This document shows positions 9,271 to 51,533 of a stretch of 64,000 bases of DNA, piece by piece. Each line of letters begins with the position of its first letter. Position 1 is the stretch's first letter. The stretch is from Christensenellales bacterium (GTDB lineage: Bacteria > Bacillota > Clostridia > Christensenellales > DTU072): NCBI GenBank assembly GCA_050309775.1, contig JBNRMV010000001.1, positions 95,014 through 159,013 on the forward strand, written 5' to 3'. A program made the translations under genes and the position numbers. A model generated the notes under the pieces. That model ran no database searches, was not told the origin of the DNA, and was given only the letters and a program-made list of their open reading frames with translations.

Positions 9271-10443
9271 ATGAAGAGGCTTTTTACTTCAGAAAGCGTT
9301 ACTGAAGGGCATCCGGACAAGATATGCGACCAAATCAGCGACGCTATTCTGGACGCAATACTTGAACAAGACAGCAGCGCCCGTGTTGCATGCGAAACTT
9401 GCACAACCACAGGGCTTGTGCTTGTAATGGGCGAAATCTCAACAAAGGCTTATGTGGATATTGCCGGTATAGCCAGAGAAACCATAAAAAAGATTGGCTA
9501 CGATTCTTCAGACCTAGGGTTTGATTATAACACTTGCTCCGTGCTTACCGCCATAAACGAGCAGTCGCCAGACATCGCTCAGGGCGTAAATGCCAGTTTA
9601 GAATGCAGCACTTCTTGCGCAGACAGGCTTGACAGCGTCGGCGCCGGAGACCAAGGAATGATGTTCGGCTATGCCACAGACGAGACGGAAGAGTATATGC
9701 CGCTTGCGCTGATGCTTTCGCACAAACTTTGCATGAGACTTGCGGAGGTGCGCAAACTTGGACTAGTCGACTATTTGCGCCCTGACGGCAAGGCGCAGGT
9801 AACTGTGGAATACCAAGCAGGCGTTCCCAAGAGAATTGAAGCTGTTGTGTTGTCAACACAGCATAGCGAAAGCATAGACATATCTAAGTTGCGTCAAGAA
9901 ATGACAGAACTTGTGGTAAAACAGGTTATATCGCCGGATATGATGGATAATGACACCAAAATATATATCAACCCCACCGGCAGGTTCGTAAAAGGCGGAC
10001 CAAATGCCGACAGCGGTTTGACCGGTCGCAAAATCATCGTAGACACCTACGGCGGTTATGCGCCCCACGGCGGCGGCGCTTTCTCAGGCAAGGACCCCAC
10101 GAAAGTAGACCGCAGCGCATCATACTATGCAAGATATGTGGCAAAAAATATCGTTGCCGCAGGTCTGGCAAAACGGTGCGAAATCTGTGTGGCTTATGCC
10201 ATAGGCAAAGCCAATCCGGTCTCTATCGACATAAATACTTTTGGCACGGCGACAGTTGATGAAGCAGAATTATTGACTGCCGTTAAGAAAGTTTTTGACT
10301 TTCGTCCTCAGGCTATTATCGAAAATCTTGAACTCAGAAGGCCGCAGTACCTTGCAGCGGCAACATATGGGCATTTCGGCAGGAGCGAATTCAGCTGGGA
10401 AAAAACTGACAAGACCGAAGAGCTTCGGGACTGTCTGTCATAA
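9271..10443 (+). CDS. metK: S-adenosylmethionine synthetase
   Basis: [32 protein letters not shown] and [16 protein letters not shown] motifs. It lies 12 nt after rpoC with an AAGGAG RBS. Confidence 0.95.
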
Positions 10444-17427: not shown

Positions 17428-19494
17428 ATGACGAAAGTATATCCGCTGGATAAAATTAGAAATATAGGTATTATGGCTCACATAGACGCCGGCAAGACCA
17501 CGACCTCAGAAAGGATATTGTTTTATACGAACAAGGTCCACAAAGTAGGCGAAGTTCATGACGGCACAGCCACAATGGACTGGATGGTGCAGGAACAGGA
17601 AAGAGGCATCACCATAGTTTCGGCTGCCACAACAACGGAATGGAAGGATTTTTGCATAAATATTATTGACACCCCCGGGCATGTGGATTTTACCGTTGAA
17701 GTCGAAAGAAGTTTGAGAGTGTTGGACGGTGCCGTAGCGGTATTTTGCGCCAAAGGCGGTGTTGAGCCGCAGTCCGAAACGGTTTGGAGACAAGCCAACA
17801 AATACAAAGTGCCAAGGATTGCTTTTGTCAATAAGATGGACATAAACGGAGCAGATTTTTATAATGTTGTCGACATGATGAGGACAAGGCTGCACACAAA
17901 CGCCGTGCCTATCGTCTTGCCCATGGGCAAGGAAGACACCTTTGAGGGTATTATTGATGTGCTGAAGAACAAAGCAATAAAGTACAACGACCCCAAGGGC
18001 ATCGAAATAACATATGTAGATGTTCCCGAGCAATACAAGGAAGAAGTGGCGGCGGCAAGGGCATATATTGAAGAAGTCTGCGGCGACAATGACGACGATG
18101 CCATGATGAAAGTTCTTGAGGGCGAGCCGCTGACCGAAGAAGACATGCTTAGGGCGCTGCGCAAGGCTACAATTGCTCTGAAAATAACTCCCGTAGTATG
18201 CGGCACGGCATATAGGAATAAGGGCGTCCAAAAATTGTTGGACATGATAGTTGCGCTGTTGCCGTCACCTCTTGAAATTGAATCCATAAAAGGCATAGAC
18301 GAAAGAGGCAAAGAGACGGAAAGGCACGCCAGTTTTTCTGAGCCTTTGGCAGGGCTGGCTTTCAAAATAATGGTAGACCCGTTTGTCGGCAAGCTGGCAT
18401 TTTATAGAATTTATAGCGGCATTTTGAGAACAGGAATGCAGGTATATAACAGTACCAAACAAAGAAAAGAAAGAATCAGCAGAATTCTTAGAATGCATTC
18501 AAACAACAGAACTGAGATTGACGAGGCCAGCGCCGGCGACATTGTGGCTCTTGTCGGGCTGAAAGATACCACGACAGGCGACACGCTTTGCGATATCCAA
18601 AAACCCATTATACTTGAAAGCATGGATTTCCCTGACCCCGTTGTTAGGGTTGCAATTGAGCCAAAAACAAAAATAGGTCAAGAAAAAATGGGGCTTGCGC
18701 TGTCAAAACTTTCGGAAGAGGACCCCACTTTCAAAACATATACCGACAGAGAAACCGGACAGACAATCATAGCCGGTATGGGCGAGTTGCATTTGGAAAT
18801 AATAGTCGACAGACTGTTGCGCGAGTTCAAAGTTGAAGCCAACATAGGTCAGCCGCAGGTGGCATACCGCGAGGCAATCAAGAAAGAAGCTGTTGCCGAA
18901 GGCAAGTATGTCAGGCAGTCGGGCGGCAGAGGACAATATGGTGTGTGCAAAATTATTATTTCGCCGAATGAACAGGGCAAAGGAATTGTGTTTATTGACG
19001 AAATCGTCGGCGGCGTCATACCCAAAGAGTATATCAAACCCATTGAAGACGGCATAAGAGAGGCGGCAATGGGCGGAGTGCTGCTGGGTTATGAGATGGT
19101 GGACTTTACCGTAAGGCTTGTAGACGGCAGCTATCATGAAGTAGACAGCAGCGAAATGGCGTTCAAGATTGCCGGCTCAATGGCATACAAGGAAGCCGCA
19201 ATGAAAGCCAACCCGACAATTCTGGAGCCTATGATGGAAGTTGAGGTGACGGCTCCGGCGGAATATCTTGGTGCAGTACTGGGTTCTTTGTCATCAAGAA
19301 GGGGCAGCGTAAAGTCTATGGACGACCGCCACGGAGCAAAAGTTATCATTGTCGATGTGCCGCTTTCAGAGATGTTCGGATACACGACCGTACTAAGAAG
19401 CGCCACTCAGGGCAGAGGTTCAAGTTCAATGCAACTCAAATGCTACACTGAGGTTCCGCTCTCCGAAAGGAAAAAAATGCTTGAGAAAGTATAA
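17428..19494 (+). CDS. fusA: Elongation factor G
   Basis: [28 protein letters not shown] and NKMD G-domain motifs; 688 aa. Confidence 0.97.
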
Positions 19495-19554
19495 CTTTTG
19501 AGCAAAACGATAATTATTTTAATTATAATTTCCTCAAAAATGATATGAAATCAG

Positions 19555-19583
19555 GTGACAAGACAAAATAAATATTATATAAT
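19555..19583 (+). promoter_or_regulatory. Candidate dedicated promoter for tuf
   Basis: GTGACA, a 17-nt spacer, then TATAAT (19578-19583) in the AT-rich fusA-tuf spacer. Confidence 0.55.
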
Positions 19584-35789: not shown

Positions 35790-36773
35790 ATGATTAAAGT
35801 ATATGTAGTAAACGAAAATAGGTATTCTCATTTGGACATTTTGGGGAAACATCCTCAGGATATCCTGACTGACGGACTAAAGAATTTCTCAACGATAGAA
35901 AACATAGCCGAGGCTGACGGAGATGACGCGGAATTTTGCGCCGTACTTTATTATGACACTCCTTTGGCAGACGATTCGTTTTTGCAGGAGTTGGCGGCAA
36001 AGGGCGACGGTTGGAAAATCGGCGACGGTTGGCTGAAGAAGAAGGGCTATACCGGCGAAATGAAAGAATGCGACGATGTCCGAGCCACGCAAATAAAAAA
36101 TCTTGGCATGCTGGCTCCCATTTATAAAGAATTGCGCAAAAGAACGCTGGACAAATTTCGCGGCAGGAATATATTGTTTTATGACATCGACAGTTGTTAT
36201 ATCGATATGACTGTTGAAATTGCCGACGGCTGCATAATACACCCCATGGTGATATTGCGCGGAAAGACAAAGCTGGGCAATGACTGCGTTATTTTCCCGC
36301 AAACAGAACTCATAGATACTGTAGTCGAAAACTGCGTTGACATTCGCTCTTCATTTTCCATCGATGCCAAAATAGGGTCATATACTACTGTCGGACCCTT
36401 TGCATGTCTAAGAAAAGGCGCAGAAATAGGCGCATATTGCCGTGTCGGAGACTTTGTCGAAGTCAAAAACTCCGTTATAGGCGACGGCACAAAGATGGCG
36501 CATTTGGCTTATGTCGGCGACTCTACCGTCGGTCAGAATACCAATGTAGGCTGCGGCACGGTATTTGCAAACTACAACGGCAAAATAAAACAAAGATGTT
36601 CCGTAGGCAGCAATGTCTTTATCGGAGCCAATAGCAATCTGGTGGCGCCTGTCGTAGTGCATGACGGCGCTTATATTGCCGCCGGCAGCACAGTCACTCA
36701 CGATGTCCCGGGCGGCAACCTTTGCATAGCAAGGTCAAGACAAGTGCTGAAAGAAAACTGGGAAAGAAAATAA
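35790..36773 (+). CDS. GlmU-like protein: intact left-handed beta-helix acetyltransferase domain with a truncated/degenerate uridyltransferase domain
   Basis: Hexapeptide repeats and the C-terminal part resemble GlmU (VGDFVEVKNS..., GCGTVFANYNG). The 327-aa protein lacks the LAAGKGTRM motif; the equivalent region reads VVNENRYS. Confidence 0.75.
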   Translation: MIKVYVVNENRYSHLDILGKHPQDILTDGLKNFSTIENIAEADGDDAEFCAVLYYDTPLADDSFLQELAAKGDGWKIGDGWLKKKGYTGEMKECDDVRATQIKNLGMLAPIYKELRKRTLDKFRGRNILFYDIDSCYIDMTVEIADGCIIHPMVILRGKTKLGNDCVIFPQTELIDTVVENCVDIRSSFSIDAKIGSYTTVGPFACLRKGAEIGAYCRVGDFVEVKNSVIGDGTKMAHLAYVGDSTVGQNTNVGCGTVFANYNGKIKQRCSVGSNVFIGANSNLVAPVVVHDGAYIAAGSTVTHDVPGGNLCIARSRQVLKENWERK

Positions 36774-36815
36774 CTGCAACGCTTGGATTGCTGCGACAAT
36801 GGAATTTTATTGATT

Positions 36816-36846
36816 ATTGACATGCCAGGCTTATAGTTATATAATA
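36816..36846 (+). promoter_or_regulatory. Candidate promoter of the seven-gene glycoside locus
   Basis: TTGACA followed by a TATAAT-like element 15-17 nt downstream. Exact spacing is uncertain because of a 1-nt reading ambiguity (see rejected notes). Confidence 0.45.
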
Positions 36847-36879
36847 ATTAAGACTTTTAATTATTGTAGAGGTATTTTT

Positions 36880-37350
36880 GTGATAGCAATCGGTTCTGAT
36901 AAGTCTGGGTTTGCACTCAAGGAAAGCATAAAAAGTTTTTTGAAGCAAGAGGGTTTTGCATTTGACGACCTCGGAACGCAGAGCATGGACGCAGGTGTTC
37001 CTTATTTTGAGGTAGCAAGCAAAATTGCTCCGCTGGTAGCTGACGGAACTTATGAGAAAGCTATACTTGTTTGTGGAACGGGCATGGGAATGAGCGTTGT
37101 TGCCAACAAGCACAAGGGAGTATATGCCGCCGCCGTTGAAAGCGTGTACAGCGCAAAAATGGCAAGGGCAATAAACAATGCGCAAATACTTTGTATGGGC
37201 GGCTGGATTATTGCAACCGAAATGGGCATAGAGATGACGAAGGTTTTTCTCAATACGGAATTTTTGCAGGGGTTGGAAGACTGGCGGCAACAGTTTTTGA
37301 CTAATGCGGCGCAAAAATTAAAAGATATTGAAGAGGACATTTATGGATAA
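36880..37350 (+). CDS. RpiB/LacA/LacB-family sugar(-phosphate) isomerase
   Basis: IAIGSDKSGFALKE...LVCGTGMGMSVVANK core. I place the start at GTG 36880, after GTAGAGG, rather than at the upstream TTG at 36817. Confidence 0.8.
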   Translation: MIAIGSDKSGFALKESIKSFLKQEGFAFDDLGTQSMDAGVPYFEVASKIAPLVADGTYEKAILVCGTGMGMSVVANKHKGVYAAAVESVYSAKMARAINNAQILCMGGWIIATEMGIEMTKVFLNTEFLQGLEDWRQQFLTNAAQKLKDIEEDIYG

Positions 37351-38458
37351 TTTTACTTATGCGCAACCCGTAAAGATTTATTTCGGCGCAGGCAAGCTCA
37401 ATGAGTTGGGCGAAATTGCCGAAAAAAACGGCTACAAGCGAGGCGGTTTGATAGCCGACTCAATTTTTATTAAAAACGGATTGGCGCAGTCCCTGAAAGA
37501 AAAAACACCATGCATTATAGGTGTTTTTTCTGAGTTTTCGCCAAACCCTATGCTGAATGAAGTGCTTGCCGCAGCGGCAAAGCTCAAAGAATGGCAAGTG
37601 GATTTTGTCGTAGCTTTGGGCGGAGGCAGCGCGCTGGATTTGGCGAAGTTTGCCGCGTCCATGGTCTATGCGCAGCATGACATAAGAGATTATTTTTTTG
37701 GAAAGAAAACATTTTCATCAGAACATTTGCCGCTTTTTGCCGTGCCTTCAACGGCAGGCACAGGCTCGGAAGTTACCACAGTATCCGTATGTACCGACGA
37801 CGACACCGGCATAAAGGCGCCGCTATTACATAAGAATTTTTTACCGGAAATAGCTATTGTAGATTCTCAACTGACGCTGAGCGTGCCGCCTTTTGTGACA
37901 GCGCTGACGGGCATGGATGCCTTGTCGCATGCGCTGGAGGCTTTTTGGAGTATCAATCATCAGCCTATTTGCGACTTGCTGGCAACTGCGGCTTGCAGGT
38001 TGATATTTGCCAATCTGGAAACAGCGTATGCAGACGGCAGAAACCCTACCGCAAGACACAACATGTCCTTGGCGGCTCTTTACGCCGGACTGGCTTTTTC
38101 CCAAACAAAGACGGCGGCTTGCCATGCTTGTTCCTATCCGCTTTCTTCAGATTACAACCTAGCGCACGGGGAAGCTTGCGCCTTTACTCTTGACAGCATA
38201 ACCCGTTTGAATGCCGCTGCCGAAGGCGGTCGGGTGGAAAGGCTGGCAAAAGAAATAGGGATTGAGAACGCCGACGCAATGGCGGACAAGATATACGCAA
38301 TGAAAAAAGCTATGGGCTTGAGATGTACGCTTGCCGAATGCGGCATAGAGGACATTTCCGCTCTTAGTGAAAAGTGCGTTGCTCATCCGCTGATGAACAA
38401 CAATCCCGTAAAAATAGACAAAAGTACCATGATAAAAATCTTTGAAAATTTGAGGTGA
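37343..38458 (+). CDS. Iron-containing (group III) alcohol dehydrogenase
   Basis: GGGSALDLAK, PSTAGTGSEVT, DALSHALEA and HACSYPL...HGEA metal ligands. ATG 37343 overlaps the upstream stop (ATGGATAA). Confidence 0.85.
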   Translation: MDNFTYAQPVKIYFGAGKLNELGEIAEKNGYKRGGLIADSIFIKNGLAQSLKEKTPCIIGVFSEFSPNPMLNEVLAAAAKLKEWQVDFVVALGGGSALDLAKFAASMVYAQHDIRDYFFGKKTFSSEHLPLFAVPSTAGTGSEVTTVSVCTDDDTGIKAPLLHKNFLPEIAIVDSQLTLSVPPFVTALTGMDALSHALEAFWSINHQPICDLLATAACRLIFANLETAYADGRNPTARHNMSLAALYAGLAFSQTKTAACHACSYPLSSDYNLAHGEACAFTLDSITRLNAAAEGGRVERLAKEIGIENADAMADKIYAMKKAMGLRCTLAECGIEDISALSEKCVAHPLMNNNPVKIDKSTMIKIFENLR

Positions 38459-38459
38459 C

Positions 38460-39539
38460 ATGACTAATCAAGGGTCAAACAGCAAATCGCTGAGATGCAA
38501 CAACAGGAGGGTTATCCTTTGGAAATTGTTCAACAACGGTCCGATGTCCAGAGTTGAGCTTGCCAAGGAGTGCCGTCTTACGGGTGCGGCTATCACAATC
38601 ATAGTAAAAGAACTGCTTGAAAGCGGGAAAATTATTGAAAACGGGCAGAGGTTGCAACGCAACCACCAGGGCAGGAAAGAGGTATTGCTTGATTTGAACT
38701 ATAACGAATACCTTGCCTGCAACATAAATATTGAACGGGACAACATTCATTTTTCTCTTTGCAGTCTGAAAGGCATTGTCTTTAAATCCATAAAACCCAC
38801 AAAAGAGATGATGGGCATAGAGTATTTACGCATAAACATTGAGCGTATAACAAGAGGCTATGAGCACAGGCTTGTAGGCATAGGCATAGGAGTGACGGGC
38901 GCCGTAGACGAACAGAGCGGCGAATTGGTTAATTCATACGGCTTGTTCCCTAACGGCTTGAACATTAAAGAAGAGCTGGGCAGATATTTTCAAGTGCCGA
39001 TATATGTTGCCAACAATGTACGAGCGCAAGCAATGGCAATAATAAGTATGGACAACAGGAATTTCTTATACATAAAACACGGGCCGGGAGTAGGTTGCGC
39101 CATTGTCATAAATGGCAAGGTGCTGAACGGGCATACCAACAAAGCCGGAGAAATGTCCCAAGTGCGCATTTCCTGCGCTTCGGACAAGCTGGAAGACTAT
39201 TTGAAGGAAGATGAGTTGCTGGCAAAAACGCACTTCAGCACCACAAAGGAACTGTATGCGGCATACAGGGTAAACAAACAAGCAACGGAAGTGCTGGACG
39301 AGTGCATCTTAACTATGGCTTATTGTGTAATAAACATGAACAAGCTGATAGACCCCGAAAAAATTATTCTGGGCGGCGGATTTTTTTATAGCCAGTTGAT
39401 ATACGAAGAATTGTATAAAAAACTTTGTGAAATAGACTCAGAAGCCGCCGAAAAGGTTGAACTTTTGTCAGAGGAAGTCAACATAAAAAGCATTGCCAGC
39501 GCCAGACTGGTTTTTAACAAAGTATTCTTTGAAGCGTAA
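38460..39539 (+). CDS. ROK-family transcriptional regulator (N-terminal wHTH)
   Basis: The N-terminal NNRRVILWKLFNNGPMSRVELAKECRLTGAAITIIVKEL is followed by a ROK sugar-binding-like domain. The kinase DxGxT and CxCGxxGC motifs are degenerate. Confidence 0.8.
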   Translation: MTNQGSNSKSLRCNNRRVILWKLFNNGPMSRVELAKECRLTGAAITIIVKELLESGKIIENGQRLQRNHQGRKEVLLDLNYNEYLACNINIERDNIHFSLCSLKGIVFKSIKPTKEMMGIEYLRINIERITRGYEHRLVGIGIGVTGAVDEQSGELVNSYGLFPNGLNIKEELGRYFQVPIYVANNVRAQAMAIISMDNRNFLYIKHGPGVGCAIVINGKVLNGHTNKAGEMSQVRISCASDKLEDYLKEDELLAKTHFSTTKELYAAYRVNKQATEVLDECILTMAYCVINMNKLIDPEKIILGGGFFYSQLIYEELYKKLCEIDSEAAEKVELLSEEVNIKSIASARLVFNKVFFEA

Positions 39540-39549
39540 GGAGGACTAC

Positions 39550-41037
39550 ATGCGCCAAGACAAAAAGATTTATCAGGACCCAAAACTGTTTACCGAAAAG
39601 GTAGCGCTGAAAGAGAAAATGATATTTGCTTCAGCCGATTTGTACGGCGGCGGCGCCCCCTCTCTTGTCAATACGCTGTATTTTGCTTTTTTGGTAGCTA
39701 TGGGCGTAGGTACGGTTTGGGCGGGAGTAATTGTCGCAGTCGCAAAGATATGGGACGCTGTTACCGACCCGTTCATGGGCGTCATAAGCGACAACACCCG
39801 TTCAAAGTGGGGCAGGCGCAGGCCATACATATTATTTGGCGGAATGCTGATTATTGCCAGCTTTGCGCTGTTGTTTTTGCCTATGCAATCGGTCAGCTCA
39901 AAAGCGCTGAAAGTTACCGTATATATGGCGGCATATCTCTTTTATAATACGCTGTCAACAGTCATAAATGTCAGCTATTCGAGTTTTTCGACAGAGCTTG
40001 CCAACAATCCCAAAGAGACGACGCAGGTCAACACGCTGCGCCTTATATTCTCCATGTGTTCGGGCGGCATAGCCGCAATAGGCGGCACTTTACTGCTTGA
40101 TAAACTGCTTACGGGAGCCATTTCCATAAACACATTGTACTTTATAGTGGTATTCGGATTCGGCGCGCTGTACACTGTGCCTTGCGTACTTACAGGTCTT
40201 TTCACCAAAGAAAGAGTAAGACTGCCTGAAACCAAGTCAACTTTCACATTCAAGACTTTCATTACGCCGCTGAAAGTTAAGGCATTCATTTATTTGCTTT
40301 GCGGCTATCTCTTTGCTTATGTGTGCATGGATTTGCTCAGCACAAATATAGTTTATTTTGCAAACTACGCTTTGGATGTGGAGGTAGGCGGCACCGTTAT
40401 ACTAGGCACAGTCATGGTCATTACTTTCTTCACATTGCCGCTGTATTACCTTATGATGCAAAAAGGCGTTGCCAAGCCATTTATTTTTAGGGTGGGTATA
40501 CCCGTCTATATCATAGGAATTGTCTTGCTGACCATGGTACCGCTTAACAACCTGCCGCTGGTGTTATTCTTTTGCTTTCTCATAGGCATAGGCATGGCTG
40601 GCTCACAACTTATGCCATGGATAATATTCCCCGACATCATCGACATAGCCGAATTAAAACTCGGCAACAGACCTACGGGCAGTTTCAGCGGAGTTATGAC
40701 TTTTACAAAAAAATCCACATCGGCGATAGCCATACTCTTATCCGGCATTGTGCTGAAACTTGTCGGGTTCAATGAGCCTAAGGCAGACCCGACAACGGGA
40801 AAAATAAATTATGAGGACTTTGTACAGACCGATATCGCCGTATGGGGCATAAAGTTGCTCATTATGGTTTCGGTAGTAATATTCATGGGACTGGCGTTCT
40901 TTGCCATGCGCAGGCTCAAACTAAACAACGCAATAAGCGAAAAGGTAAGATATCTCATAGAAAAGAGAAATCGCGGAGAGGAATACGACGAACAGGACAA
41001 AAAAGATTTTGCGCAAATAGAGAAAGACTTTTTTTAA
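39550..41037 (+). CDS. GPH-family glycoside:cation symporter (MelB/YihO-like MFS)
   Basis: GPH signature DAVTDPFMGVISDNTRSKWGRRRPY and 12 hydrophobic segments. ATG 39550 follows an AGGAGG RBS. Confidence 0.85.
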   Translation: MRQDKKIYQDPKLFTEKVALKEKMIFASADLYGGGAPSLVNTLYFAFLVAMGVGTVWAGVIVAVAKIWDAVTDPFMGVISDNTRSKWGRRRPYILFGGMLIIASFALLFLPMQSVSSKALKVTVYMAAYLFYNTLSTVINVSYSSFSTELANNPKETTQVNTLRLIFSMCSGGIAAIGGTLLLDKLLTGAISINTLYFIVVFGFGALYTVPCVLTGLFTKERVRLPETKSTFTFKTFITPLKVKAFIYLLCGYLFAYVCMDLLSTNIVYFANYALDVEVGGTVILGTVMVITFFTLPLYYLMMQKGVAKPFIFRVGIPVYIIGIVLLTMVPLNNLPLVLFFCFLIGIGMAGSQLMPWIIFPDIIDIAELKLGNRPTGSFSGVMTFTKKSTSAIAILLSGIVLKLVGFNEPKADPTTGKINYEDFVQTDIAVWGIKLLIMVSVVIFMGLAFFAMRRLKLNNAISEKVRYLIEKRNRGEEYDEQDKKDFAQIEKDFF

Positions 41038-41048
41038 TGAGGTCATAA

Positions 41049-42362
41049 ATGAAAAAACATATAAGACTGGGCGTAGTGTGCCTGGCAAGAAAGACCTTTG
41101 ATTTTGAGGCGGCGGCGCAGCTGTATGATATTATTTTGCAAAATCTGCAAACGCTTGAAAATGTCACCGTTTGCGCTGTAAAACAGCTTGTAATTGAGGT
41201 CTGCGACGCCGAGAAAGCCGCATCGGAACTGTATGACAGCAAAGTTGACGGCATAGCCGTAATCAGCGGAACTTTCCACCTTGGGCATCTTGCGTTGGAA
41301 ATAAAAAAGAGAGTAGACAAGCCGCTTTTGCTATGGGGTTTGCCAGAATTACCCTATGACGGCGGCAAAATAAGGCTGAATTCAGTTTGCGGCGTAAACC
41401 TCAACGCGTCCAATCTCGTAAAGGGCGGCATAAACGACTTTACCTATACCATAAGCTCTGAAATTGACGAAAACTGGTTGGACGCTGTACGCATGACGGC
41501 GGCATTAAAAAATGCCAAGGTGGGTATTCTAGGCTATCGCGCGCACGGGTTTTTTAATCTTGACATTGACGAACCGGCGCTTTACAAAAAGTTCGGCATA
41601 CTTATAGACCATTTTGAGTTGGAGCAGGTCTGGAACTACAAATTTGACGAAAAAGACAGGACTACCTATGCCGAAATTATGAAACAGCGCTTTGATGCCT
41701 CCGAGATAACGGACAAACAAGCTGCGTTGGTGGCGGATTTGGCAGCCAAACTCAAAGCCTTTGTCCAAGACAATCGTCTGAACGCGCTGGCAATCAGATG
41801 CTGGCCGGAATTTGCCGCAGGCTTTGGAGTGGCGCCTTGCGCGGCTATGAGTTTGCTGCAAAGTCAGGATATTGTACTGGCATGCGAGGGGGATATTGAC
41901 TGCGCGTTGACTATGCTTTGTCATCAGGCGGCAGGCGCAGAAACGCCTTTTATGGCAGACCTGTCGCAAGTAAACTTAGCAGAGGATTTTGCGCTTATGT
42001 GGCATTGCGGAGTGGCGGCGGTCAACCTTTGCGACAAACAATGCGCTGCGACGCTGGACACTTATTTTGCCGGGGGCAAAGGAGTGACAGCCGGCTTTGT
42101 CATGAGAAGCGGCGCAATAAACATGGCGCGGTTGGACAGCATAAACGGACGGTATAGACTGTTCCAAGAAAAAGGTCAAGCCGTGCCTATGAAAAAACTG
42201 TTGACGGGAACATATGCCAAGGTCAGTTTTGACAAGCCCATGAAAGAGGTGCTGGACAAGGTGGTCTACAACGGCGTTGCGCATCATGTTTCTATGGTCT
42301 ATGGCGACTATACCCGAGCCATGCAGATATTTGCCAGACTGAACGGAATAGAGATGTTGTAG
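41049..42362 (+). CDS. L-fucose/L-arabinose isomerase-superfamily protein (aldose-ketose isomerase), specificity unknown
   Basis: 437 aa. The N-terminus is a Rossmann-like sugar-isomerase domain. The C-terminal CEGD, WHCG and HHVSMVYGD match the Glu/His metal-site pattern of this superfamily as I recall it. Confidence 0.6.
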   Translation: MKKHIRLGVVCLARKTFDFEAAAQLYDIILQNLQTLENVTVCAVKQLVIEVCDAEKAASELYDSKVDGIAVISGTFHLGHLALEIKKRVDKPLLLWGLPELPYDGGKIRLNSVCGVNLNASNLVKGGINDFTYTISSEIDENWLDAVRMTAALKNAKVGILGYRAHGFFNLDIDEPALYKKFGILIDHFELEQVWNYKFDEKDRTTYAEIMKQRFDASEITDKQAALVADLAAKLKAFVQDNRLNALAIRCWPEFAAGFGVAPCAAMSLLQSQDIVLACEGDIDCALTMLCHQAAGAETPFMADLSQVNLAEDFALMWHCGVAAVNLCDKQCAATLDTYFAGGKGVTAGFVMRSGAINMARLDSINGRYRLFQEKGQAVPMKKLLTGTYAKVSFDKPMKEVLDKVVYNGVAHHVSMVYGDYTRAMQIFARLNGIEML

Positions 42363-42370
42363 AAAAAGCG

Positions 42371-44368
42371 TTGAAAAGGAAAGAAATGATGGAACTCATT
42401 GACATAAACGGACAGGCGATATTGAAATTCAAAGGCAGGAAGGTGTTTTCGCACAGCGCCGATGCCCCCTTTGTTACCGTTGCCAAAGGCAGAGTAAAAT
42501 TCAAGAGCAGCCACGGCAGTTTTTCCGTTAAAAAGCAAAAAAGACAACTCATTGCGCTGCCTGAATACAAGGTCTTGACAGACTGTCTTGAAATCTTTGG
42601 GGAGGGCGCAAGCGTAAGGCTTGAATTCTCCGAAAAGAACGGCATGCTTTATGCCAAAATCAGCGCCGGCGGAGCCATTGACAGCATATCATTTTGCTTT
42701 GACAGCAACAAGGACGAAATGTTCTTTGGCGGCGGCGAGCAGTACAGAAAACTCAATCTGAAAGGCGAAATAGTTACAAACTTTGTGTCGGAACACATAA
42801 AGGTCATGCCTATTGCCGAAAAGACGATTTTTCGCAAATTCAAAAAATACCGTGTGAGAAATCACAGCGAAATAACCACTTACAGCCCTATGTCGACCTT
42901 TGTTTCAAGTGAAAAATATGCTTTGCGTTTTGACACAGACGGTTATGGAGAACAGGACTTTACACAAAATGATAAATCGGTATTTACCTATTGGGGCATA
43001 CCCGAGGGGTTTTGTTATGTCGCAGAGGACAGTTTCAAGGATATTTCAAAAAAGCTGGCTATGGACATTGCAGCAAACCCGTTTTTGCCGGACTGGGCTT
43101 ATGAGGGTATGATTCTGGGTGTGCAAGGCGGCATTGATACGGTAAAAAAGAAAGCGTATTACATGCTGGGTCAGGGCGCAAAGGTCGTTGGCGTTTGGTG
43201 TCAGGACTGGTCTGGCAAGAAAGTCACAGCCGCCGGTAGTCAGGTTTATTGGAACTGGCAAGCTGACGAAACCATGTATGCCGCTTTGAAAGAAGAAATT
43301 GCCGAATTGAAAAGCAAGGGAGTGCGCTTTCTTGCTTACATAAATCCATATTTGATAGTAAACGGCAAATTGTACAACGAATGCAAAGAAAAGGGTTATC
43401 TTATTAAGAACGCTGACGGCGGTATATACCACATAACAAGCACGACTTTTGCCGCCGGTATGATGGACCTAACAAATCCGGGAATGGTAAAGTATCTGAA
43501 AGATACCATAATAAAAAAGAACATGCTGGAACTAGGGATTGACGGATATATGGCTGACTTCGGCGAATATTTGCCGACAGACAGCGTACTGTATGACGGC
43601 GACGCAACCAAGCTGCACAACAAATGGCCGGTGCTTTGGGCAAAAATAAATCGTCAGGCTATAGCGGAGAGCGGCAGAGAAAAGGAAATTTTCTTTTTTA
43701 CCCGTTCGGGATACAACGGCGCGCAAAAATATACCACTATTATGTGGAACGGCGACCAGCACACTGACTTTACCCAAGACTACGGAATGCCTTGCATAAT
43801 TCCTGCATCAATAAACCTCGGTATGTCGGGGTTGACGGCAGTTCACAGCGATATCGGCGGTTTTATCTCTTTTCGCAATCTGAAAAGGGATGTCGAACTA
43901 TATGTCCGCTGGTTGGAACTTTGCACATTCAGTCCGCTTTTGAGAGGGCATGAAAGCATAAGACCGCAGGCAAATGTGCAGTATGACCACCCGGAAGTTG
44001 TGCCGTATGCCGTGACATTCTCCACCCTTCATAAAAAACTTGCTCCGTACATAAAGCATTGCATGGCGGAGGCAAAAGGGGGGCTACCCGTAATGCGCGC
44101 GCCTTTTTATGAATACAATGACATGTCGCTTTATAAAGAAGACTATGTTTACATGTTGGGCAGCGAGCTTTTTGTGGCGCCCGTTATCACTCCAAATACA
44201 TATGAAAGACAGGTGTTTGTGCCAGAAGGAGAATGGATACATCTCCTTAGCGGCAAACTGTACAAAGGCGGGCAACAGACCATATCCGCACCGTTGGGCA
44301 CGCCGGCGGTGTTATACAAGAAAGACAGCAGTTTTGCGGCGCTGTTTGAAAGCTGCAAATCAGACTAA
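42371..44368 (+). CDS. GH31 alpha-glycosidase of the YihQ-like size class
   Basis: Nucleophile motif YMADFGEYLP, acid/base motif WNGDQ, and HSDIGGF. The ORF-track start is TTG 42371; ATG 42386 behind AAGGA is an alternative. Confidence 0.85.
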   Translation: MKRKEMMELIDINGQAILKFKGRKVFSHSADAPFVTVAKGRVKFKSSHGSFSVKKQKRQLIALPEYKVLTDCLEIFGEGASVRLEFSEKNGMLYAKISAGGAIDSISFCFDSNKDEMFFGGGEQYRKLNLKGEIVTNFVSEHIKVMPIAEKTIFRKFKKYRVRNHSEITTYSPMSTFVSSEKYALRFDTDGYGEQDFTQNDKSVFTYWGIPEGFCYVAEDSFKDISKKLAMDIAANPFLPDWAYEGMILGVQGGIDTVKKKAYYMLGQGAKVVGVWCQDWSGKKVTAAGSQVYWNWQADETMYAALKEEIAELKSKGVRFLAYINPYLIVNGKLYNECKEKGYLIKNADGGIYHITSTTFAAGMMDLTNPGMVKYLKDTIIKKNMLELGIDGYMADFGEYLPTDSVLYDGDATKLHNKWPVLWAKINRQAIAESGREKEIFFFTRSGYNGAQKYTTIMWNGDQHTDFTQDYGMPCIIPASINLGMSGLTAVHSDIGGFISFRNLKRDVELYVRWLELCTFSPLLRGHESIRPQANVQYDHPEVVPYAVTFSTLHKKLAPYIKHCMAEAKGGLPVMRAPFYEYNDMSLYKEDYVYMLGSELFVAPVITPNTYERQVFVPEGEWIHLLSGKLYKGGQQTISAPLGTPAVLYKKDSSFAALFESCKSD

Positions 44369-44378
44369 CGGAGGACAT

Positions 44379-45278
44379 ATGAAAGAACTTAGACTGCCGT
44401 CATGGGACGGCAAAGAGATTTTTTGCTCATTGTGGGATGAAGTCGAAAACCCAAAAGGCGTTGTGCAGATTTCGCACGGCATGAGCGAGTATGCCGGCAG
44501 ATATGACCGATTTGCCAGATTTCTGAATGACAACGGTTATATTGTCTTTGCAGATGACCACAGAGCGCACGGCAGGACAGAAACCGACCAAAACCGCGGA
44601 CATGACAAGGGTTTTATTTTTAGCAACACGCTGAAAGATTTGGTATTTATACATAATTATCTCAAAGAAAAATATAACTTGCCTCAGGTGCTGGTGGGGC
44701 ACAGTTACGGCAGTTTTTTGGCGCAGGCGTTTTTCCTTGAAGATACTGATGCAAAAGGCGTGGCACTTCTTGGCTCCGCATATATTCCCAATGCGTTGGT
44801 AGGCGTCGGTGTTGCCATAATGTCGCCCATACAGTTGCTTTTCGGCAGTTGCCGCCCGAAGATTTTTATAAAAGCCACAGATGCGCTTTTCCGCTACAAA
44901 GGCGACAACGGTCCCAGCCAATGGGTGACTAGCGACAAACAAAGCCGTAAGGAATTCTTAGAGGACAAATATTGCGGTATCAACATGAGCATAAATTTTG
45001 TGTTTTCTATGATGAGGGGAATTTATATTACCAATAAGAATATAAAAAAACTCAACCCCGACAGAAAGCTGGGCATATTTTCAGGCGACGGCGATCCGAT
45101 AGGCGGCAAAGGAACCAAAGTTAAGGCGCTTATGAACCGCTATAAAAAGTACGGCGTCAAGGACATTACTTACCGCTTGTATGAAGGAGTGCGCCACGAA
45201 GTGCTGAACGAAACCATTTTTGAACAAACACAGCAAGATGTTTTGGCATTCATTGAACATTGCATAAACGATAAATAA
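44379..45278 (+). CDS. Alpha/beta-hydrolase, lysophospholipase/monoacylglycerol-lipase-like
   Basis: ISHGMSEYAGRY, the nucleophile elbow GHSYGS, and a C-terminal RHE region. ATG 44379 follows a GGAGG RBS, and the longer track ORF overlaps the GH31 gene. Confidence 0.8.
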   Translation: MKELRLPSWDGKEIFCSLWDEVENPKGVVQISHGMSEYAGRYDRFARFLNDNGYIVFADDHRAHGRTETDQNRGHDKGFIFSNTLKDLVFIHNYLKEKYNLPQVLVGHSYGSFLAQAFFLEDTDAKGVALLGSAYIPNALVGVGVAIMSPIQLLFGSCRPKIFIKATDALFRYKGDNGPSQWVTSDKQSRKEFLEDKYCGINMSINFVFSMMRGIYITNKNIKKLNPDRKLGIFSGDGDPIGGKGTKVKALMNRYKKYGVKDITYRLYEGVRHEVLNETIFEQTQQDVLAFIEHCINDK

Positions 45279-45320
45279 AAACAAGCTGCAACAAAACATA
45301 AAATTCAAGCAACCAAAACA

Positions 45321-45349
45321 AAAGAACGGTAGAAAACCCGTTCTTTTTT
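45321..45349 (+). terminator. Intrinsic terminator ending the glycoside locus
   Basis: AAAGAACGG-uagaaaac-CCGUUCUUU stem followed by a U-run. Confidence 0.75.
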
Positions 45350-45411
45350 GTTGCATATGTTACAGAATTTTTTGTAGCCATGTTACAGAATGGTTTTTAG
45401 CGGCTACAAAA

Positions 45412-47298
45412 CTATCTTGAACGGCCGCCGCCTCCGCCGAACCCTCCGCCGCCGAATCCTCCTCCGCCGCCGAAGCCTCCGCCGCCGCCAAATCCGCCGC
45501 CAAATCCACCGCCGCCAAATCCGCCTTTATTGATTTGGCTTGCAGGGCGGGACAAAGCTGTTCGGGTAATGCTGTTTATGGAGCGAGAGAACATAGCGTT
45601 GAAAAGTATGAAGTCAAACGGTCTGTATCCGACATAATATCTTGGCGGTTCCACGGACAAGCCGCTGAATTTGCTCATCCAGATATTTGACACTCCCAGC
45701 GTGTTGGCAAAGGGCAGTATCTCATAATAGTATGAGGGGTTTTCATGCAGCATCATTTCCATTTTGTCTTTTTCTACGCTTGCGATATAGTTCTTGAAGC
45801 CAATCAGGTCATTAAGCTGTGCGGCATAGGTGTCCGTCCTTTTCTGCGCAAAAGGCGCAAATGTAAAGACCAGTCCGAAGGTAAGCACATATACGATTAC
45901 ATCGGGTTTCGGAATAAAGTTGCTTCGGAAAAAGAGCGTCATGAAAAGACAAAGCAAAAATATCAATGCCGCATATCCGAAATAATAGTATTTTCGCTTT
46001 TCAAATACTTTTGGCTCCATTCGGAAGATTGCCGTTGCGGCAAAATACAGAACTACGGCAGGCGCCACCACCATGAGAATATCGGGCGTGAAGTAGGAAC
46101 TGTGAATGGCTGTTGAACTGAAAACAAGAGAAATCAGCACAAAAACAATCGGCAGCGCGCATAGGACAATTGAAAGGACGGCGCTTTTGGAGTCAAACAA
46201 TTTGCCGTGGAATTGCGCAATAAGCTGTTGCCTTGTCATCTCCATTGTTGTATAGAACTTGTTTTGCAAATCGCCGACTCTGACGACTTCGCCATTTGCA
46301 AAAAGTCCGTTGAACATTGTCTGTTCATGGCGCTTGCGGTCTTGAGGCAGGGGCTTGAGTCTTGTCAGCGTGATATCCCTGTATTTTTCGCTGTCGGCTA
46401 TGTCGATATACCCTTGCGCCGCCCAATAATAAATCAAAGCGGTCAAGTCGGACGGCTGACATTTTGTATCAACGAGATAGCCTGCCTCTGCAGGGTTGAG
46501 TCCGTTGGCGGTAAAGTTTATTATCGGATAAATCTGATTGTTCTTGCCGTATTTGGCATAGATAAAATAGCATATAAGAATGAGCGCCAGCCCTACCAAA
46601 ATCTTTGGCAGCAGCGACCATTCAAATTTTTGTTTAAGCGCGCCGTCGGCAAAATCATAACTTATGGTTATGCCTTCGTATGCGGCAAGCGTATCTTTTG
46701 TCTTTATGTTTATGTGTTTGCCCTCGGTGGTGATGTCCAGCCTCTGTTGGCCGCCTCTTTCGCCCCACTTGCCGGCATAATAATATGCGCCTACGGGGTC
46801 AAAGGGCAGTGTGACATCTATTTCGGCATTTAATATTTTTGTCGGCCAGCCCACGCCTATAACATTCAGTGGAATGGTGTTCTTTGAATCTTTTATTTTT
46901 GGCAAAATCAGCGTATAGGTCAGCGTGTATTGCCTTGGTTGTGTTGAGGCGGTAAAATTTTCTGCGTCAAGGTCAATGGAAATATACTTGCCGTTCTTCT
47001 CCACGGAAACAACCCTGTCGGGGCTGTCAATGTCTTTTATTTGCAAACCTTTTACTATGGGTATATCCCGAATTATGGCGCTGCGCGGTTCAAGAAAATT
47101 TATGTCGATTATTTCTTTGACTTGTACATGTCTGTACTCATCTATCTTTATTTCGATATAATAATTTGAGACCTCAAAAGTCGTGTCATATATTTCGTTG
47201 ATATCCGGCTCAATGTTATTGAATGGAATGACCGCCAGCATCAGAATAATAAGCGGCAAAAAAATTGCCAGCATTATGATGAGGGTTTTTTTGTTCAT
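45412..47298 (-). CDS. DUF2207-like membrane protein with a Gly/Phe-rich C-terminal tail
   Basis: Signal/TM, then a large extracytoplasmic domain, then several TM helices, then the tail GGFGGGGFGGGFGGGGGFGGGGG. It lies immediately downstream of lemA. Confidence 0.75.
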   Translation of the reverse strand: MNKKTLIIMLAIFLPLIILMLAVIPFNNIEPDINEIYDTTFEVSNYYIEIKIDEYRHVQVKEIIDINFLEPRSAIIRDIPIVKGLQIKDIDSPDRVVSVEKNGKYISIDLDAENFTASTQPRQYTLTYTLILPKIKDSKNTIPLNVIGVGWPTKILNAEIDVTLPFDPVGAYYYAGKWGERGGQQRLDITTEGKHINIKTKDTLAAYEGITISYDFADGALKQKFEWSLLPKILVGLALILICYFIYAKYGKNNQIYPIINFTANGLNPAEAGYLVDTKCQPSDLTALIYYWAAQGYIDIADSEKYRDITLTRLKPLPQDRKRHEQTMFNGLFANGEVVRVGDLQNKFYTTMEMTRQQLIAQFHGKLFDSKSAVLSIVLCALPIVFVLISLVFSSTAIHSSYFTPDILMVVAPAVVLYFAATAIFRMEPKVFEKRKYYYFGYAALIFLLCLFMTLFFRSNFIPKPDVIVYVLTFGLVFTFAPFAQKRTDTYAAQLNDLIGFKNYIASVEKDKMEMMLHENPSYYYEILPFANTLGVSNIWMSKFSGLSVEPPRYYVGYRPFDFILFNAMFSRSINSITRTALSRPASQINKGGFGGGGFGGGFGGGGGFGGGGGFGGGGFGGGGGRSR

Positions 47299-47321: not shown

Positions 47322-47888
47322 TCAATTGAATGATACCTTTACATTTTGTCTTTCTTCGGCACTGTCCAGTTCAAAATATGCTTTTTTCTCAAGTTTCATG
47401 CTTTTTGCTACAATACTGTCGGGGAATATTCTTATTCTTGTGTTATAGCTCTTTACGACGGCGTTGTAGTATTTGCGTGATTGCGCAAGTTCTGTTTCGA
47501 TAACTTTCAACTGACCCTGCAATTCGGTGAACTGGGTATTGGCTTTCAGTTCGGGGTAGTTTTCGGATAATGCAAAAAGCGTCTTCAGCGTATCGCTCAG
47601 GGCATTTTCGGCATCGGCTTTGGCTTCGCCGCTGGCGTTCATTGCCATGTTTCGGGCTTTTATGACGCCTTCCAGCGTTTCTTTCTCGTGTTTCATATAG
47701 CCCTTGACTGTTTCAAGCAGGTTGGGAATGAGGTCATATCTTTTTTTCAAATAGACATCTATCGTCGCAAAGCCCTCTTCAACATTGTTTGTCATGGTGA
47801 CGAACTTGTTTCGTACAGAGACAAACCATACTGCAATAAGCACCGCAAGCGCGGCAATAACTATGAGAACAATAACAAAAGGATTCAT
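47322..47888 (-). CDS. lemA: LemA-family protein
   Basis: One N-terminal TM helix and LemA-type helical repeats (DVYLKKRYDLIPNL, RKYYNAVV..YN). Confidence 0.88.
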   Translation of the reverse strand: MNPFVIVLIVIAALAVLIAVWFVSVRNKFVTMTNNVEEGFATIDVYLKKRYDLIPNLLETVKGYMKHEKETLEGVIKARNMAMNASGEAKADAENALSDTLKTLFALSENYPELKANTQFTELQGQLKVIETELAQSRKYYNAVVKSYNTRIRIFPDSIVAKSMKLEKKAYFELDSAEERQNVKVSFN

Positions 47889-50340: not shown

Positions 50341-50483
50341 ATCTTTTCCTTATATCGTTTTTTATATTATAAGCCCAAAGCTGCCCATGGGTCAATACCG
50401 AGGTCAGGATTGCAATAAAAAGGGCAAAAAGTGTTTTGATTGATTTTATGTTATGCTATAATGAAATGCAAAGAGAGGTTATT

Positions 50484-51533
50484 ATGAAATTTACTTTTAG
50501 ATGGTACGGAGAAAAAGATTCGATAACGCTGGAAAAAATTCGCCAAATACCCGTAATTAAGGGTATTGTATGTTCGGTATATGACACACCGCCGGGGGAG
50601 GTTTGGAAACGGAAGGATATCGCCAAGATAAAACAAGCCGCCGAAAGCAACGGTCTGGAATTTGAAGTAGTAGAGAGCGTACCCGTGCATGAGGACATAA
50701 AGCTGGGACGGGTCGACACTCGTGACGGGTATATTGACAACTATATCGAAACCATAAAAAGGCTGGCAGAGGCGGGCATAAAAGTAATTTGCTACAACTT
50801 TATGCCGGTATTTGACTGGATGAGAAGCGACCTCAACAAAAAGAATGCCGACGGCTCGCTTTCGCTGGCATACGACAATGAAGTAGTAAACAGTCTGAAC
50901 CCATTGACGCTTTCCGATGATTTGAACCTCCCGGCATGGGACAAGAGCATCGGCAGAGAGCGCATGAAAGAATTGCTGGAAACATATCAGACATTTACCG
51001 AAGAACAATATTTCAGCAATGTTAAATATTTTCTTGACAGGATTATACCGACGGCCGAGGCCTGCGGCATAATGATGGCAATTCATCCCGACGATCCGCC
51101 GTGGAGCATTTATGGCTTGCCCAGAATAATAGGAAAGAAAGAAAACCTACAAAGGTTCCTCAATCTGAACAACAGCGTAAACAACGGTCTGACGCTTTGC
51201 ACAGGCTCGTTGGGAGTCGACGCCGACAACAACATTTCCGAACTGGCGCAGCTTGCAAAAGGCAGAATACACTTTGTGCATATGCGCAATGTGCTGATTA
51301 CGGGTGAGAAAAGTTTTCAAGAGACAGCACACCCGTCAGAATGCGGCAGCCTTGACATGTACAATATATTAAAAACGCTTGTTGACAACGGATTTGACGG
51401 CTATATTCGCCCCGACCACGGCAGACAGATTTGGGGAGAGAGCGGCAACGCCGCCGGTTATGGTTTATATGACAGGGCGCTGGGCGCAATGTATCTTGCC
51501 GGGCTTTATGAAGCAATAAAAAAGGCAGACTAA
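50484..51533 (+). CDS. uxuA: Mannonate dehydratase
   Basis: MKFTFRWYG...ITL..IRQIP N-terminus and overall UxuA-like length. ATG 50484 is preferred over the upstream ATG at 50436. Confidence 0.85.
   Translation: MKFTFRWYGEKDSITLEKIRQIPVIKGIVCSVYDTPPGEVWKRKDIAKIKQAAESNGLEFEVVESVPVHEDIKLGRVDTRDGYIDNYIETIKRLAEAGIKVICYNFMPVFDWMRSDLNKKNADGSLSLAYDNEVVNSLNPLTLSDDLNLPAWDKSIGRERMKELLETYQTFTEEQYFSNVKYFLDRIIPTAEACGIMMAIHPDDPPWSIYGLPRIIGKKENLQRFLNLNNSVNNGLTLCTGSLGVDADNNISELAQLAKGRIHFVHMRNVLITGEKSFQETAHPSECGSLDMYNILKTLVDNGFDGYIRPDHGRQIWGESGNAAGYGLYDRALGAMYLAGLYEAIKKAD

Follow-up and report, generated by a model that had tools for sequence, protein, structure and literature searches.

How a bacterium might break down a sulfosugar with an operon that lacks a gene for cleaving the carbon chain is the question raised by seven genes at positions 36880–45278 of a 64,000-nucleotide stretch of the Christensenellales contig JBNRMV010000001.1 (the whole of this stretch is referred to here as the window). 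Most likely the operon represents a variation on the known sulfo-transketolase (sulfo-TK) route by which sulfoquinovose (SQ) is broken down. Judged from homology, active-site residues, synteny and a shared operator motif, it probably serves the utilisation of sulfoquinovosyl glycerides by sulfo-TK chemistry, with the transketolase (TK) supplied in trans and isethionate as the final product.

SQ is a plant sulfosugar of which some 10 gigatonnes are produced each year, and it nourishes gut bacteria, the sulfonate products of which are respired to hydrogen sulfide (PMC8397734, PMC13219744). The sulfo-TK pathway is made up of a FucI-type SQ isomerase (SqvD/SftI), the transketolase SqwGH, the RpiB/LacAB-family isomerase SqwI and the metal-dependent alcohol dehydrogenase SqwF, and its gene clusters often add DUF4867 (SqvB/SftX), a DMT/EamA permease and a sulfoquinovosidase (PMC9594981, PMC11659671, PMC12890257); hosts include Clostridium sp. 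MSTE9, Faecalicatena spp. and rumen Oscillospiraceae (PMC9594981, PMC11659671, PMC13219744). A sequence-only reading of this DNA had not recognised its gene combination as a described pathway, but it corresponds to the published one minus SqwGH (PMC9594981, PMC11659671). What is new here is the existence of TK-less loci with a SqwI-type isomerase, and of a large clade of glycoside hydrolase family 31 (GH31) proteins with Gln and Phe at the positions of Arg301 and Tyr508 of YihQ (Q301/F508); the pathway itself is known.

Enzymes and regulation of the operon

The elements of the operon, with strands where they apply, are as follows.

36817–36845, + strand: sigma-70-type promoter, TTGACA-17 nt-TATAAT, 12 of 12 consensus matches
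36846–36862, no strand: operator-like palindrome AATTAAGACTTTTAATT, directly after the −10 box
36880–37350, + strand: RpiB/LacAB-family isomerase, proposed to be SqwI-type; GTG start; Pfam PF02502
37343–38458, + strand: TauF/SqwF-type Fe/Zn-dependent alcohol dehydrogenase (Fe-ADH); best PDB match 6jko/6jkp
38460–39539, + strand: ROK-family transcriptional regulator with an N-terminal winged helix-turn-helix (HTH); Pfam ROK and HTH_24/MarR
39550–41037, + strand: GPH/MFS_2 cation symporter; PF13347 at 218 bits, TIGR00792 below cut-off
41049–42362, + strand: AraA/FucI-fold aldose-ketose isomerase; NCBIfam SftI model and fold match
42386–44368, + strand: YihQ-subfamily GH31 alpha-glycosidase of the Q301 type; alternative TTG start at 42371
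44379–45278, + strand: monoacylglycerol-lipase-like alpha/beta-hydrolase; GHSYG serine motif; Pfam Hydrolase_4 at 123 bits
45320–45347, no strand: palindromic, bidirectional intrinsic terminator; 10-bp stem AAAAGAACGG...CCGTTCTTTT with flanking A and T runs

The seven genes are tightly packed on the + strand and bracketed by promoter and terminator, as the sequence-only reading had held; its account of tiny junctions and of the gene content also stands, with Pfam and NCBIfam agreeing on all domain calls. The promoter is the sole perfect site within the scanned interval 36000–46000, and related loci have promoters at the equivalent position upstream of the RpiB-like gene. Read from the sequence, the RpiB-like and Fe-ADH genes share 8 nt at ATGGATAA; the remaining gaps are, in gene order, 1, 10, 11, 8 and 10 nt, where the 8 nt before the GH31 gene are counted from the TTG start at 42371 and become 23 nt from the ATG at 42386. 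The terminator sits between the convergent gene ends at 45278 and 45412.

Three sets of loci were collected for comparison: the neighbourhoods of close homologues of the window GH31 and isomerase, 80 loci around canonical sulfoquinovosidases on one-genome-per-species GTDB contigs, and 80 metagenome loci around relatives of the window GH31, with Pfam-verified references for TK_N, TK_C, transaldolase (TAL), DUF4867, EamA, TauE and class II aldolase. Gene-neighbourhood conservation had been proposed as a check, and the same gene set is found in 13 other independent loci, so the arrangement is not due to chance. Together with the window these make up the 14 TK-less loci discussed below (window, L003, L005, L007, L009, L010, L011, L092 and L094–L099), across which the RpiB-like protein, Fe-ADH, isomerase and GH31 are 43–66% identical and the ROK protein ~31–33%. 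EamA genes occur in 7 of the 13 sister loci and DUF4867 genes in 6; these EamA proteins are 45–53% identical to those of sulfo-TK loci, and the DUF4867 proteins 34–43% identical to those of canonical SQ clusters. Genomes with a TK-less operon include GCA_046989185, GCA_050952545 and GCA_044426265. In one Christensenellales metagenome-assembled genome (L005/L006:12007–20683) the immediate neighbours of the TK-less cluster are a Zn-dependent phospholipase C and a cluster for iol-like inositol catabolism, a setting that looks like a lipid-head-group scavenging island.

The RpiB-like protein falls under the NCBIfam cut-offs for true RpiB (TIGR01120, 121.5 against a cut-off of 138.65), and the motifs GSDKSG, AINN and GGW replace GSDHGG, EHND and GER of true RpiB 3he8. 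It is 53–63% identical to RpiB-like genes adjoining TK genes in five loci (L046, L077, L078, L085, L090), reaching 62–63% for those beside TK_N/TK_C in L077, L085 and L090 (Oscillospiraceae, Ruminococcaceae). The RpiB-like proteins of TK-less loci as a whole reach 68% identity to these last three, which is the level found within the TK-less group. The window and TK-adjacent proteins have in common GSDKSG, RAINNA and MGGW together with a C-terminal LEDWR...IYG tail, none of it found in 3he8. The protein is thus proposed to be a SqwI-type enzyme that would convert 4-deoxy-4-sulfoerythrose to 4-deoxy-4-sulfoerythrulose.

Among PDB entries, the Fe-ADH matches the sulfoacetaldehyde reductase BkTauF (6jko/6jkp) at 323 bits and the next entry at 167 bits. 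Residues D192, Q196, F252, T257, H261, F265 and H275 of TauF correspond to D, H, F, T, H, Y and H in the window protein, and Q196H and F265Y are variants reported among close BkTauF homologues (PMC6616044), so that the metal-binding and substrate-lining residues are either kept or swapped only for such variants. The window protein is 45–47% identical to the SqwF-type Fe-ADH of sulfo-TK loci, a figure that rises to 56–59% for the Fe-ADH of the sister locus L010. Its proposed reaction is the reduction of sulfoacetaldehyde to isethionate.

The AraA/FucI-fold isomerase matches the NCBIfam SftI model over its full length (E 1e-64), yet at 219 bits against a cut-off of 700, and a sequence search against the PDB gave no match. 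Its AlphaFold2 model (pLDDT 90.4) was aligned by Foldseek to L-arabinose isomerase (TM 0.86) and L-fucose isomerase (TM 0.8) in the PDB. The window branch is only ~25% identical to the SqvD type of canonical GTDB sulfo-TK loci. Relatives 50–64% identical to it lie inside TK clusters (L093, L142, L148, L152, L160), in one of which (L093) the gene is placed between TK/RpiB and DUF4867, in clusters with TAL or TAL and YihU-like genes (L020, L022, L131, L141), and beside a YihU-like gene and a class II aldolase (L021). The conversion of SQ to 6-deoxy-6-sulfofructose is proposed for this enzyme from its predicted fold and its relatives.

The palindrome that follows the −10 box has the form AATTAAA-N3-TTTAATT, which is present at the same position in seven TK-less loci (L003, L007, L009, L010, L011, L092, L094) and also 20–160 nt upstream of TAL, YihU-like, GH31 and DUF4867 genes of canonical Firmicutes SQ loci. 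A search allowing at most one mismatch gave 24 matches against 2.7 expected from shuffled sequence; positions include L003:4900, L009:4283, L010:1385, L011:191, L092:6935, L094:7097, L040:9891, L083:9907, L021:1704 and L024:5866. Most of the canonical clusters bearing it carry ROK regulators, and a ROK gene holds the equivalent place in both related and canonical loci. A ROK-type repressor of sulfoglycolysis, as yet undescribed, probably uses this motif as its operator. The window ROK protein is NagC/Mlc-like in NCBIfam and, read by eye, has neither the DxGGT ATP motif nor the Cys/His zinc motif; since it has a winged helix and is without these kinase ATP and zinc motifs, it is taken to be a regulator, and the same features ruled it out as a missing kinase.

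Taken together, the comparisons of the RpiB-like protein, Fe-ADH, EamA, isomerase and operator tie the operon to SQ catabolism, with isethionate the likely end product. Glucosylglycerol, alpha-glucosyl-diacylglycerol, quinovosides and alpha-xylosides, which the sequence-only reading had listed as candidate substrates, are unlikely, as the RpiB-like protein, Fe-ADH and isomerase, along with the EamA and DUF4867 proteins of relatives, have close counterparts in SQ clusters (~45–64%; DUF4867 34–43%). The sulfoglycolytic logic seen in that reading, namely import, deacylation, GH31 cleavage, isomerisation and aldehyde reduction, holds; its view that the enzymes are non-orthologous does not, in that the parts match sulfo-TK enzymes.

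The absent carbon-cleaving enzyme and the proposed route

The absence of a carbon-cleaving enzyme from the window, already remarked on from the sequence, is borne out: across the whole 64 kb no transketolase, transaldolase, class II aldolase or YihU-like gene was detected (tblastn, E<=0.01; ORFs, that is open reading frames, of at least 150–200 amino acids were also read). No sugar kinase was seen on reading the window ORFs outside the cluster, in a survey that included no kinase query. SqwGH, as split TK_N and TK_C, had no tblastn match at E<=0.01 in the window and 10 related loci, and L096–L099 had no transketolase match at E<=1e-8. All 14 TK-less loci carry the RpiB-like gene and, within the available sequence, none of the four gene types named above; for several of them 10 kb is available on both sides and holds unrelated housekeeping genes. 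TK genes are present in L046, L077, L078, L085, L090, L093, L101, L102, L109 and L114.

The simplest inference is that the transketolase is encoded elsewhere in the genome and is probably the enzyme of the pentose phosphate pathway, because a SqwI-type isomerase makes sense only between two transketolase steps. The operon would then work as follows. The GPH symporter, the presumed importer of a sulfoquinovosyl glycoside, would bring in sulfoquinovosyl glycerol or its monoacyl (lyso-sulfolipid) form, from which the cytoplasmic lipase-like hydrolase would strip the remaining acyl chain before the YihQ-subfamily GH31 frees SQ. The AraA/FucI-fold isomerase would convert SQ to sulfofructose, and the transketolase would move C1–C2 to glyceraldehyde-3-phosphate, leaving sulfoerythrose. 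After isomerisation to sulfoerythrulose by the SqwI-type RpiB-family enzyme, the same transketolase would take a second C2 unit and leave sulfoacetaldehyde, which the TauF/SqwF-type dehydrogenase would reduce to isethionate for excretion. The operon would be inducible, and the ROK repressor would bind the palindrome abutting the −10 box.

An MFS_2 gene follows the Q301-type GH31 gene both in loci of the window type (L007, L009, L011, L092, L094, L095, L098) and in four that contain TK (L101, L102, L109, L114). The seventh protein matches bacterial esterases and monoglyceride lipases in the PDB and has no signal peptide apparent by eye; a cytoplasmic location and a role in deacylating lyso-sulfolipid are proposed for it. 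Of the 14 TK-less loci, 6 (window, L007, L008, L092, L094, L098) have esterases inside or close by; these are of at least three unrelated kinds, all of them alpha/beta-hydrolases, and homologues of these types were absent from the 80 canonical loci. This recurrence suggests that TK-less operons take up partly acylated sulfolipid. Compared with the fuller operons of L007, L009, L092, L094 and L098, which have both EamA and DUF4867, that of the window stands alone in having an esterase of the Hydrolase_4 type.

The flanks of the operon are of a housekeeping kind, with a glmM-like gene and a hexapeptide-repeat gene upstream and LemA and others downstream. The wider window (GC ~45%) holds rpoB/rpoC, fusA and tuf, and the operon is therefore a chromosomal locus of a Clostridia-type organism. 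Convergent with it, at 45412–47298 on the − strand, lies a gene for a 628-residue membrane protein whose C-terminus is a long Gly/Phe repeat (GGFGGGGFGGG...). A LemA-family gene at 47322–47888 on the − strand is paired with it. A UxuA-like mannonate dehydratase gene stands alone at 50436–51533 on the + strand, ~5 kb downstream of the operon. A link between the two was rejected, as there is no uxaC or uxuB among the larger window ORFs read, and UxuA recurs only in L001, a contig of the same organism.

The GH31 sulfonate pocket and the choice of substrate

The GH31 had been described from the sequence merely as YihQ-sized, which understates its affinities. It scores 645 bits against the NCBIfam model PRK10426 (product name 'alpha-glucosidase'), above the curated cut-off of 553; we take this to be the YihQ model. 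The best PDB matches are the solved sulfoquinovosidases YihQ, SmoI and SftG at 445–468 bits (YihQ 5aed, 468), with ~36% identity to YihQ and homology over the full length. In YihQ numbering, the protein keeps the catalytic nucleophile D405, the acid/base D472 and H537 (in MADFGEY, WNGDQ and RGHES), with D405 and D472 both kept in 120 of the 120 closest homologues, as well as Q288 at the +1 or hydroxyl-recognition position (CQDWSG). Sulfonate recognition in YihQ involves R301, W304 and Y508 (PMC12780224; bioRxiv 10.64898/2026.02.11.705467), and W304 is retained (VYWNW).

Several observations weigh against a sulfo-TK operon acting on SQ glycosides. Gln takes the place of R301 in the window GH31, as in 119 of the 120 homologues closest to it, and Phe that of Y508 (F in 103 homologues, Y in 17); in the 660-residue window protein these are Q286 and F493. 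No conserved basic residue that might compensate for R301 was identified, H175 being only ~86% conserved. The window operon is without the EamA/TauE exporter and the DUF4867 gene that are common in its relatives. With no transketolase in the window or the 13 related loci, the central C–C cleavage is assumed rather than seen, and the activity of SqwI itself has never been measured directly (PMC9594981).

The departure of this clade from sulfoquinovosidases is systematic. Among canonical GTDB loci, the 79 GH31 genes that bear the Q/E-RWY motif are invariant at G175, R301, D481 and Y508; the window clade differs at G175H, Q184M, D481Y and other positions, and the sulfoquinovosidase loop WTSEQGVGRNK...AGGDY (150–185) becomes the more hydrophobic FVSEHI..PI..K...H..I. 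R301 and D481 are replaced together in the window clade, which suggests a paired change; other Q301 subtypes often retain D481. The Q301 type is marked by Gln in place of Arg301 and by the remodelled loop, with Asp481 usually replaced by Tyr or Phe and Tyr508 often by Phe. A crude neighbour-joining tree of 50%-identity representatives places the window clade as a monophyletic group beside the classical sulfoquinovosidases. Among YihQ-like representatives at that identity level (P0241–P0389), Gln outnumbers Arg at position 301 roughly two to one, with 74 Q-Q-W-D-D-Y/F against 36 Q-R-W-D-D-Y/F and 8 with E288, a provisional count from an alignment over such distance; many of these proteins are 700–770 residues long and may be eukaryotic.

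Motif calls in the GH31 proteins of metagenome loci are alignment-based; by these, Q301 GH31 enzymes occur in 27 TK- or TAL-containing loci and are the sole GH31 seen in 24 of them, as in 14 of the 14 TK-less loci within the available sequence. Window-type enzymes, 45–49% identical to that of the window, are found in the complete sulfo-TK clusters L101, L102, L109 and L114. These four refuted a strict association between Q301 GH31 and the lack of a transketolase, to which the first 11 loci had conformed. In nine sulfo-TAL clusters (L123, L125, L132, L135, L139, L144, L149, L153, L156) the single GH31 seen is of another Q301 subtype, and a minimal variant with R301Q alone is found in TK clusters (L137, L142, L148, L152, L162). 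The nine sulfo-TAL clusters contain TAL, YihU-like and SqvD genes, in most cases with DUF4867 and in some with TauE, and their GH31 subtype has Q301, F or Y at 175, a VAEH loop and a conserved Y508.

The two GH31 types also occur together. Window-type Q301 enzymes stand beside a canonical RWY enzyme in L102, L103, L104 and L106, and in L173 and L059 the RWY gene is partnered by a Q301 enzyme from another subtype; examples, each with one RWY and one Q301 gene, are L102:4501–6486 and 7282–9225, L173:10001–11935 and 17616–19577, and L059:7631–9634 and 9947–11989. Such genes are adjacent in most of these loci and ~5.7 kb apart in L173. That both types stand in one locus hints at incomplete redundancy between them and suggests two complementary substrate specificities.

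This pairing (L102, L103, L104, L106, L173, L059) is the natural starting point for the strongest of the alternatives, which we nonetheless consider unlikely: that the GH31 is a companion glycosidase with its own MFS_2 transporter for another alpha-glycoside accompanying the sulfolipid, the rest of the operon running the sulfo-TK route on SQ that enters otherwise. Candidate companion substrates are an acylated or otherwise modified sulfoquinovoside and the alpha-glucuronosyl or alpha-glucosyl head group of a glycerolipid. The regular presence of an MFS_2 gene after the Q301 GH31 gene would fit, as would the changed pocket to which R301Q, D481Y, Y508F and the hydrophobic 150–185 loop point, and the association of esterases only with TK-less loci of the window type. 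Against it, the Q301 enzyme is the sole GH31 in the 24 TK/TAL and 14 TK-less loci mentioned above, where SQ release would then be lacking; the GH31 and isomerase genes are adjacent and co-conserved, and no catabolic gene for a second sugar is present.

Less probable still is a non-sulfonated 6-modified alpha-glucoside such as a 6-deoxyglucoside, processed by enzymes that merely parallel sulfoglycolysis to give a small neutral alcohol. The loss of the sulfonate-binding Arg and Tyr from a more hydrophobic pocket, the lack of a dedicated transketolase and that of a sulfonate exporter in the window version can all be read in this way, and the 6-modified alpha-glucoside suggested in the sequence-only reading keeps some life from the GH31 having lost two of three sulfonate-binding residues; as the principal interpretation it is not favoured. 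The RpiB-like protein, Fe-ADH and isomerase, with the EamA and DUF4867 proteins of sister loci, intermix with those of proven-type SQ clusters (~45–68%; DUF4867 34–43%), Q301-type GH31 genes lie in clusters with TauE, YihU-like and TAL genes, the Fe-ADH is of the TauF type, and the operator motif is common to SQ clusters. 6-Deoxyglucose, glucuronate and phosphonate or amino analogues, considered on account of R301Q and Y508F, were likewise rejected as the main substrates, given accessory enzymes interchangeable with those of sulfo-TK loci and Q301 GH31 inside TK and TAL clusters. That the operon is a decaying sulfo-TK remnant with no working pathway, to which the joint absence of the key enzyme, exporter and DUF4867 from the window might point, is very improbable, as all seven of its ORFs are intact behind a perfect promoter and conserved operator, the TK-less layout is kept in 14 loci at 43–66% identity (ROK 31–33%), which implies long-term selection, and some of the homologue clusters have hundreds of member sequences.

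A sulfo-TK operon for sulfoquinovosyl glycerides thus remains our preferred reading, and a broader proposal may be attached to it tentatively: Q301 YihQ homologues could be an unrecognised second class of sulfolipid-head-group glycosidases, able to bind sulfonate though the canonical Arg is missing, or else adapted to a different substrate, for example lyso-sulfolipid, and TK-less operons could be evidence that a general transketolase can run sulfoglycolysis. Such a class, if real, would explain both the tandem occurrence with canonical sulfoquinovosidases and the association with esterases. The searchable literature, which did not extend to the primary structural and subfamily papers, yielded no account of either TK-less sulfo-TK operons or Q301 YihQ homologues.

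SQ degraders are now recognised by yihQ together with a pathway-defining C–C-cleaving enzyme, and sulfoquinovosidases by the Q/E-RWY motif; the TK-less locus type, common in Clostridia metagenome assemblies, breaks both rules. Should the operons prove functional, screens for pathway markers would be overlooking a sizeable set of isethionate-producing Clostridia in gut and rumen, a housekeeping transketolase would suffice for sulfoglycolysis, and the structural rule for sulfonate recognition by GH31 enzymes would need revising. Surveys based on sqwGH would then undercount SQ degraders, and those based on RWY or yihQ would misclassify them. The recurrent esterase is a candidate for the long-missing bacterial 'sulfolipase' step.

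Comparison with known systems

The closest known relatives are the sulfo-TK clusters, with which the window shares an AraA/FucI-type isomerase, an RpiB-family protein of the SqwI type, an Fe-ADH of the SqwF type, a YihQ-subfamily GH31 and a ROK regulator, and its sister loci alone share the EamA/DMT permease and DUF4867. The operon has all the sulfo-TK catalytic parts minus the transketolase, and proteins of TK-less loci are ~45–68% identical to those of TK_N/TK_C loci (DUF4867 34–43%). It differs from these clusters in having no SqwGH in or near the operon (14 loci), in the distinct isomerase branch, in a GH31 without R301 and Y508, and in the added esterase gene.

Members of GH31 subfamily 13, namely YihQ of E. 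coli (5AED), SmoI of A. tumefaciens (5OHS) and SftG of E. rectale (6PNR), share with the window enzyme D405, D472, H537, Q288 and W304 as well as the location in sulfoglycolysis clusters. In contrast to these, the window clade has R301Q, Y508F (Y in a minority), D481Y, G175H and a replaced loop.

The window Fe-ADH has in common with BkTauF of Bifidobacterium kashiwanohense (6JKO/6JKP) the conserved metal ligands, F252, T257 and F265(Y). BkTauF serves taurine nitrogen assimilation (PMC6616044), whereas the context of the window enzyme is sulfosugar catabolism, as for SqwF.

As in the yih sulfo-Embden–Meyerhof–Parnas cluster of E. coli, there is a GPH-type transporter, a YihQ-subfamily GH31, isomerisation and a final aldehyde reduction. 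The window is without YihS, the YihV kinase, the YihT aldolase and YihU: tblastn queries for YihS, YihT, YihV and YihU-like proteins had no match in it, and the same queries found genes in 9 E. coli-type metagenome loci. The chemistry implied for the window operon also differs, in that C2 transfer by transketolase would give a C2 sulfonate, in place of the aldol cleavage of the yih route that gives 2,3-dihydroxypropane-1-sulfonate (DHPS).

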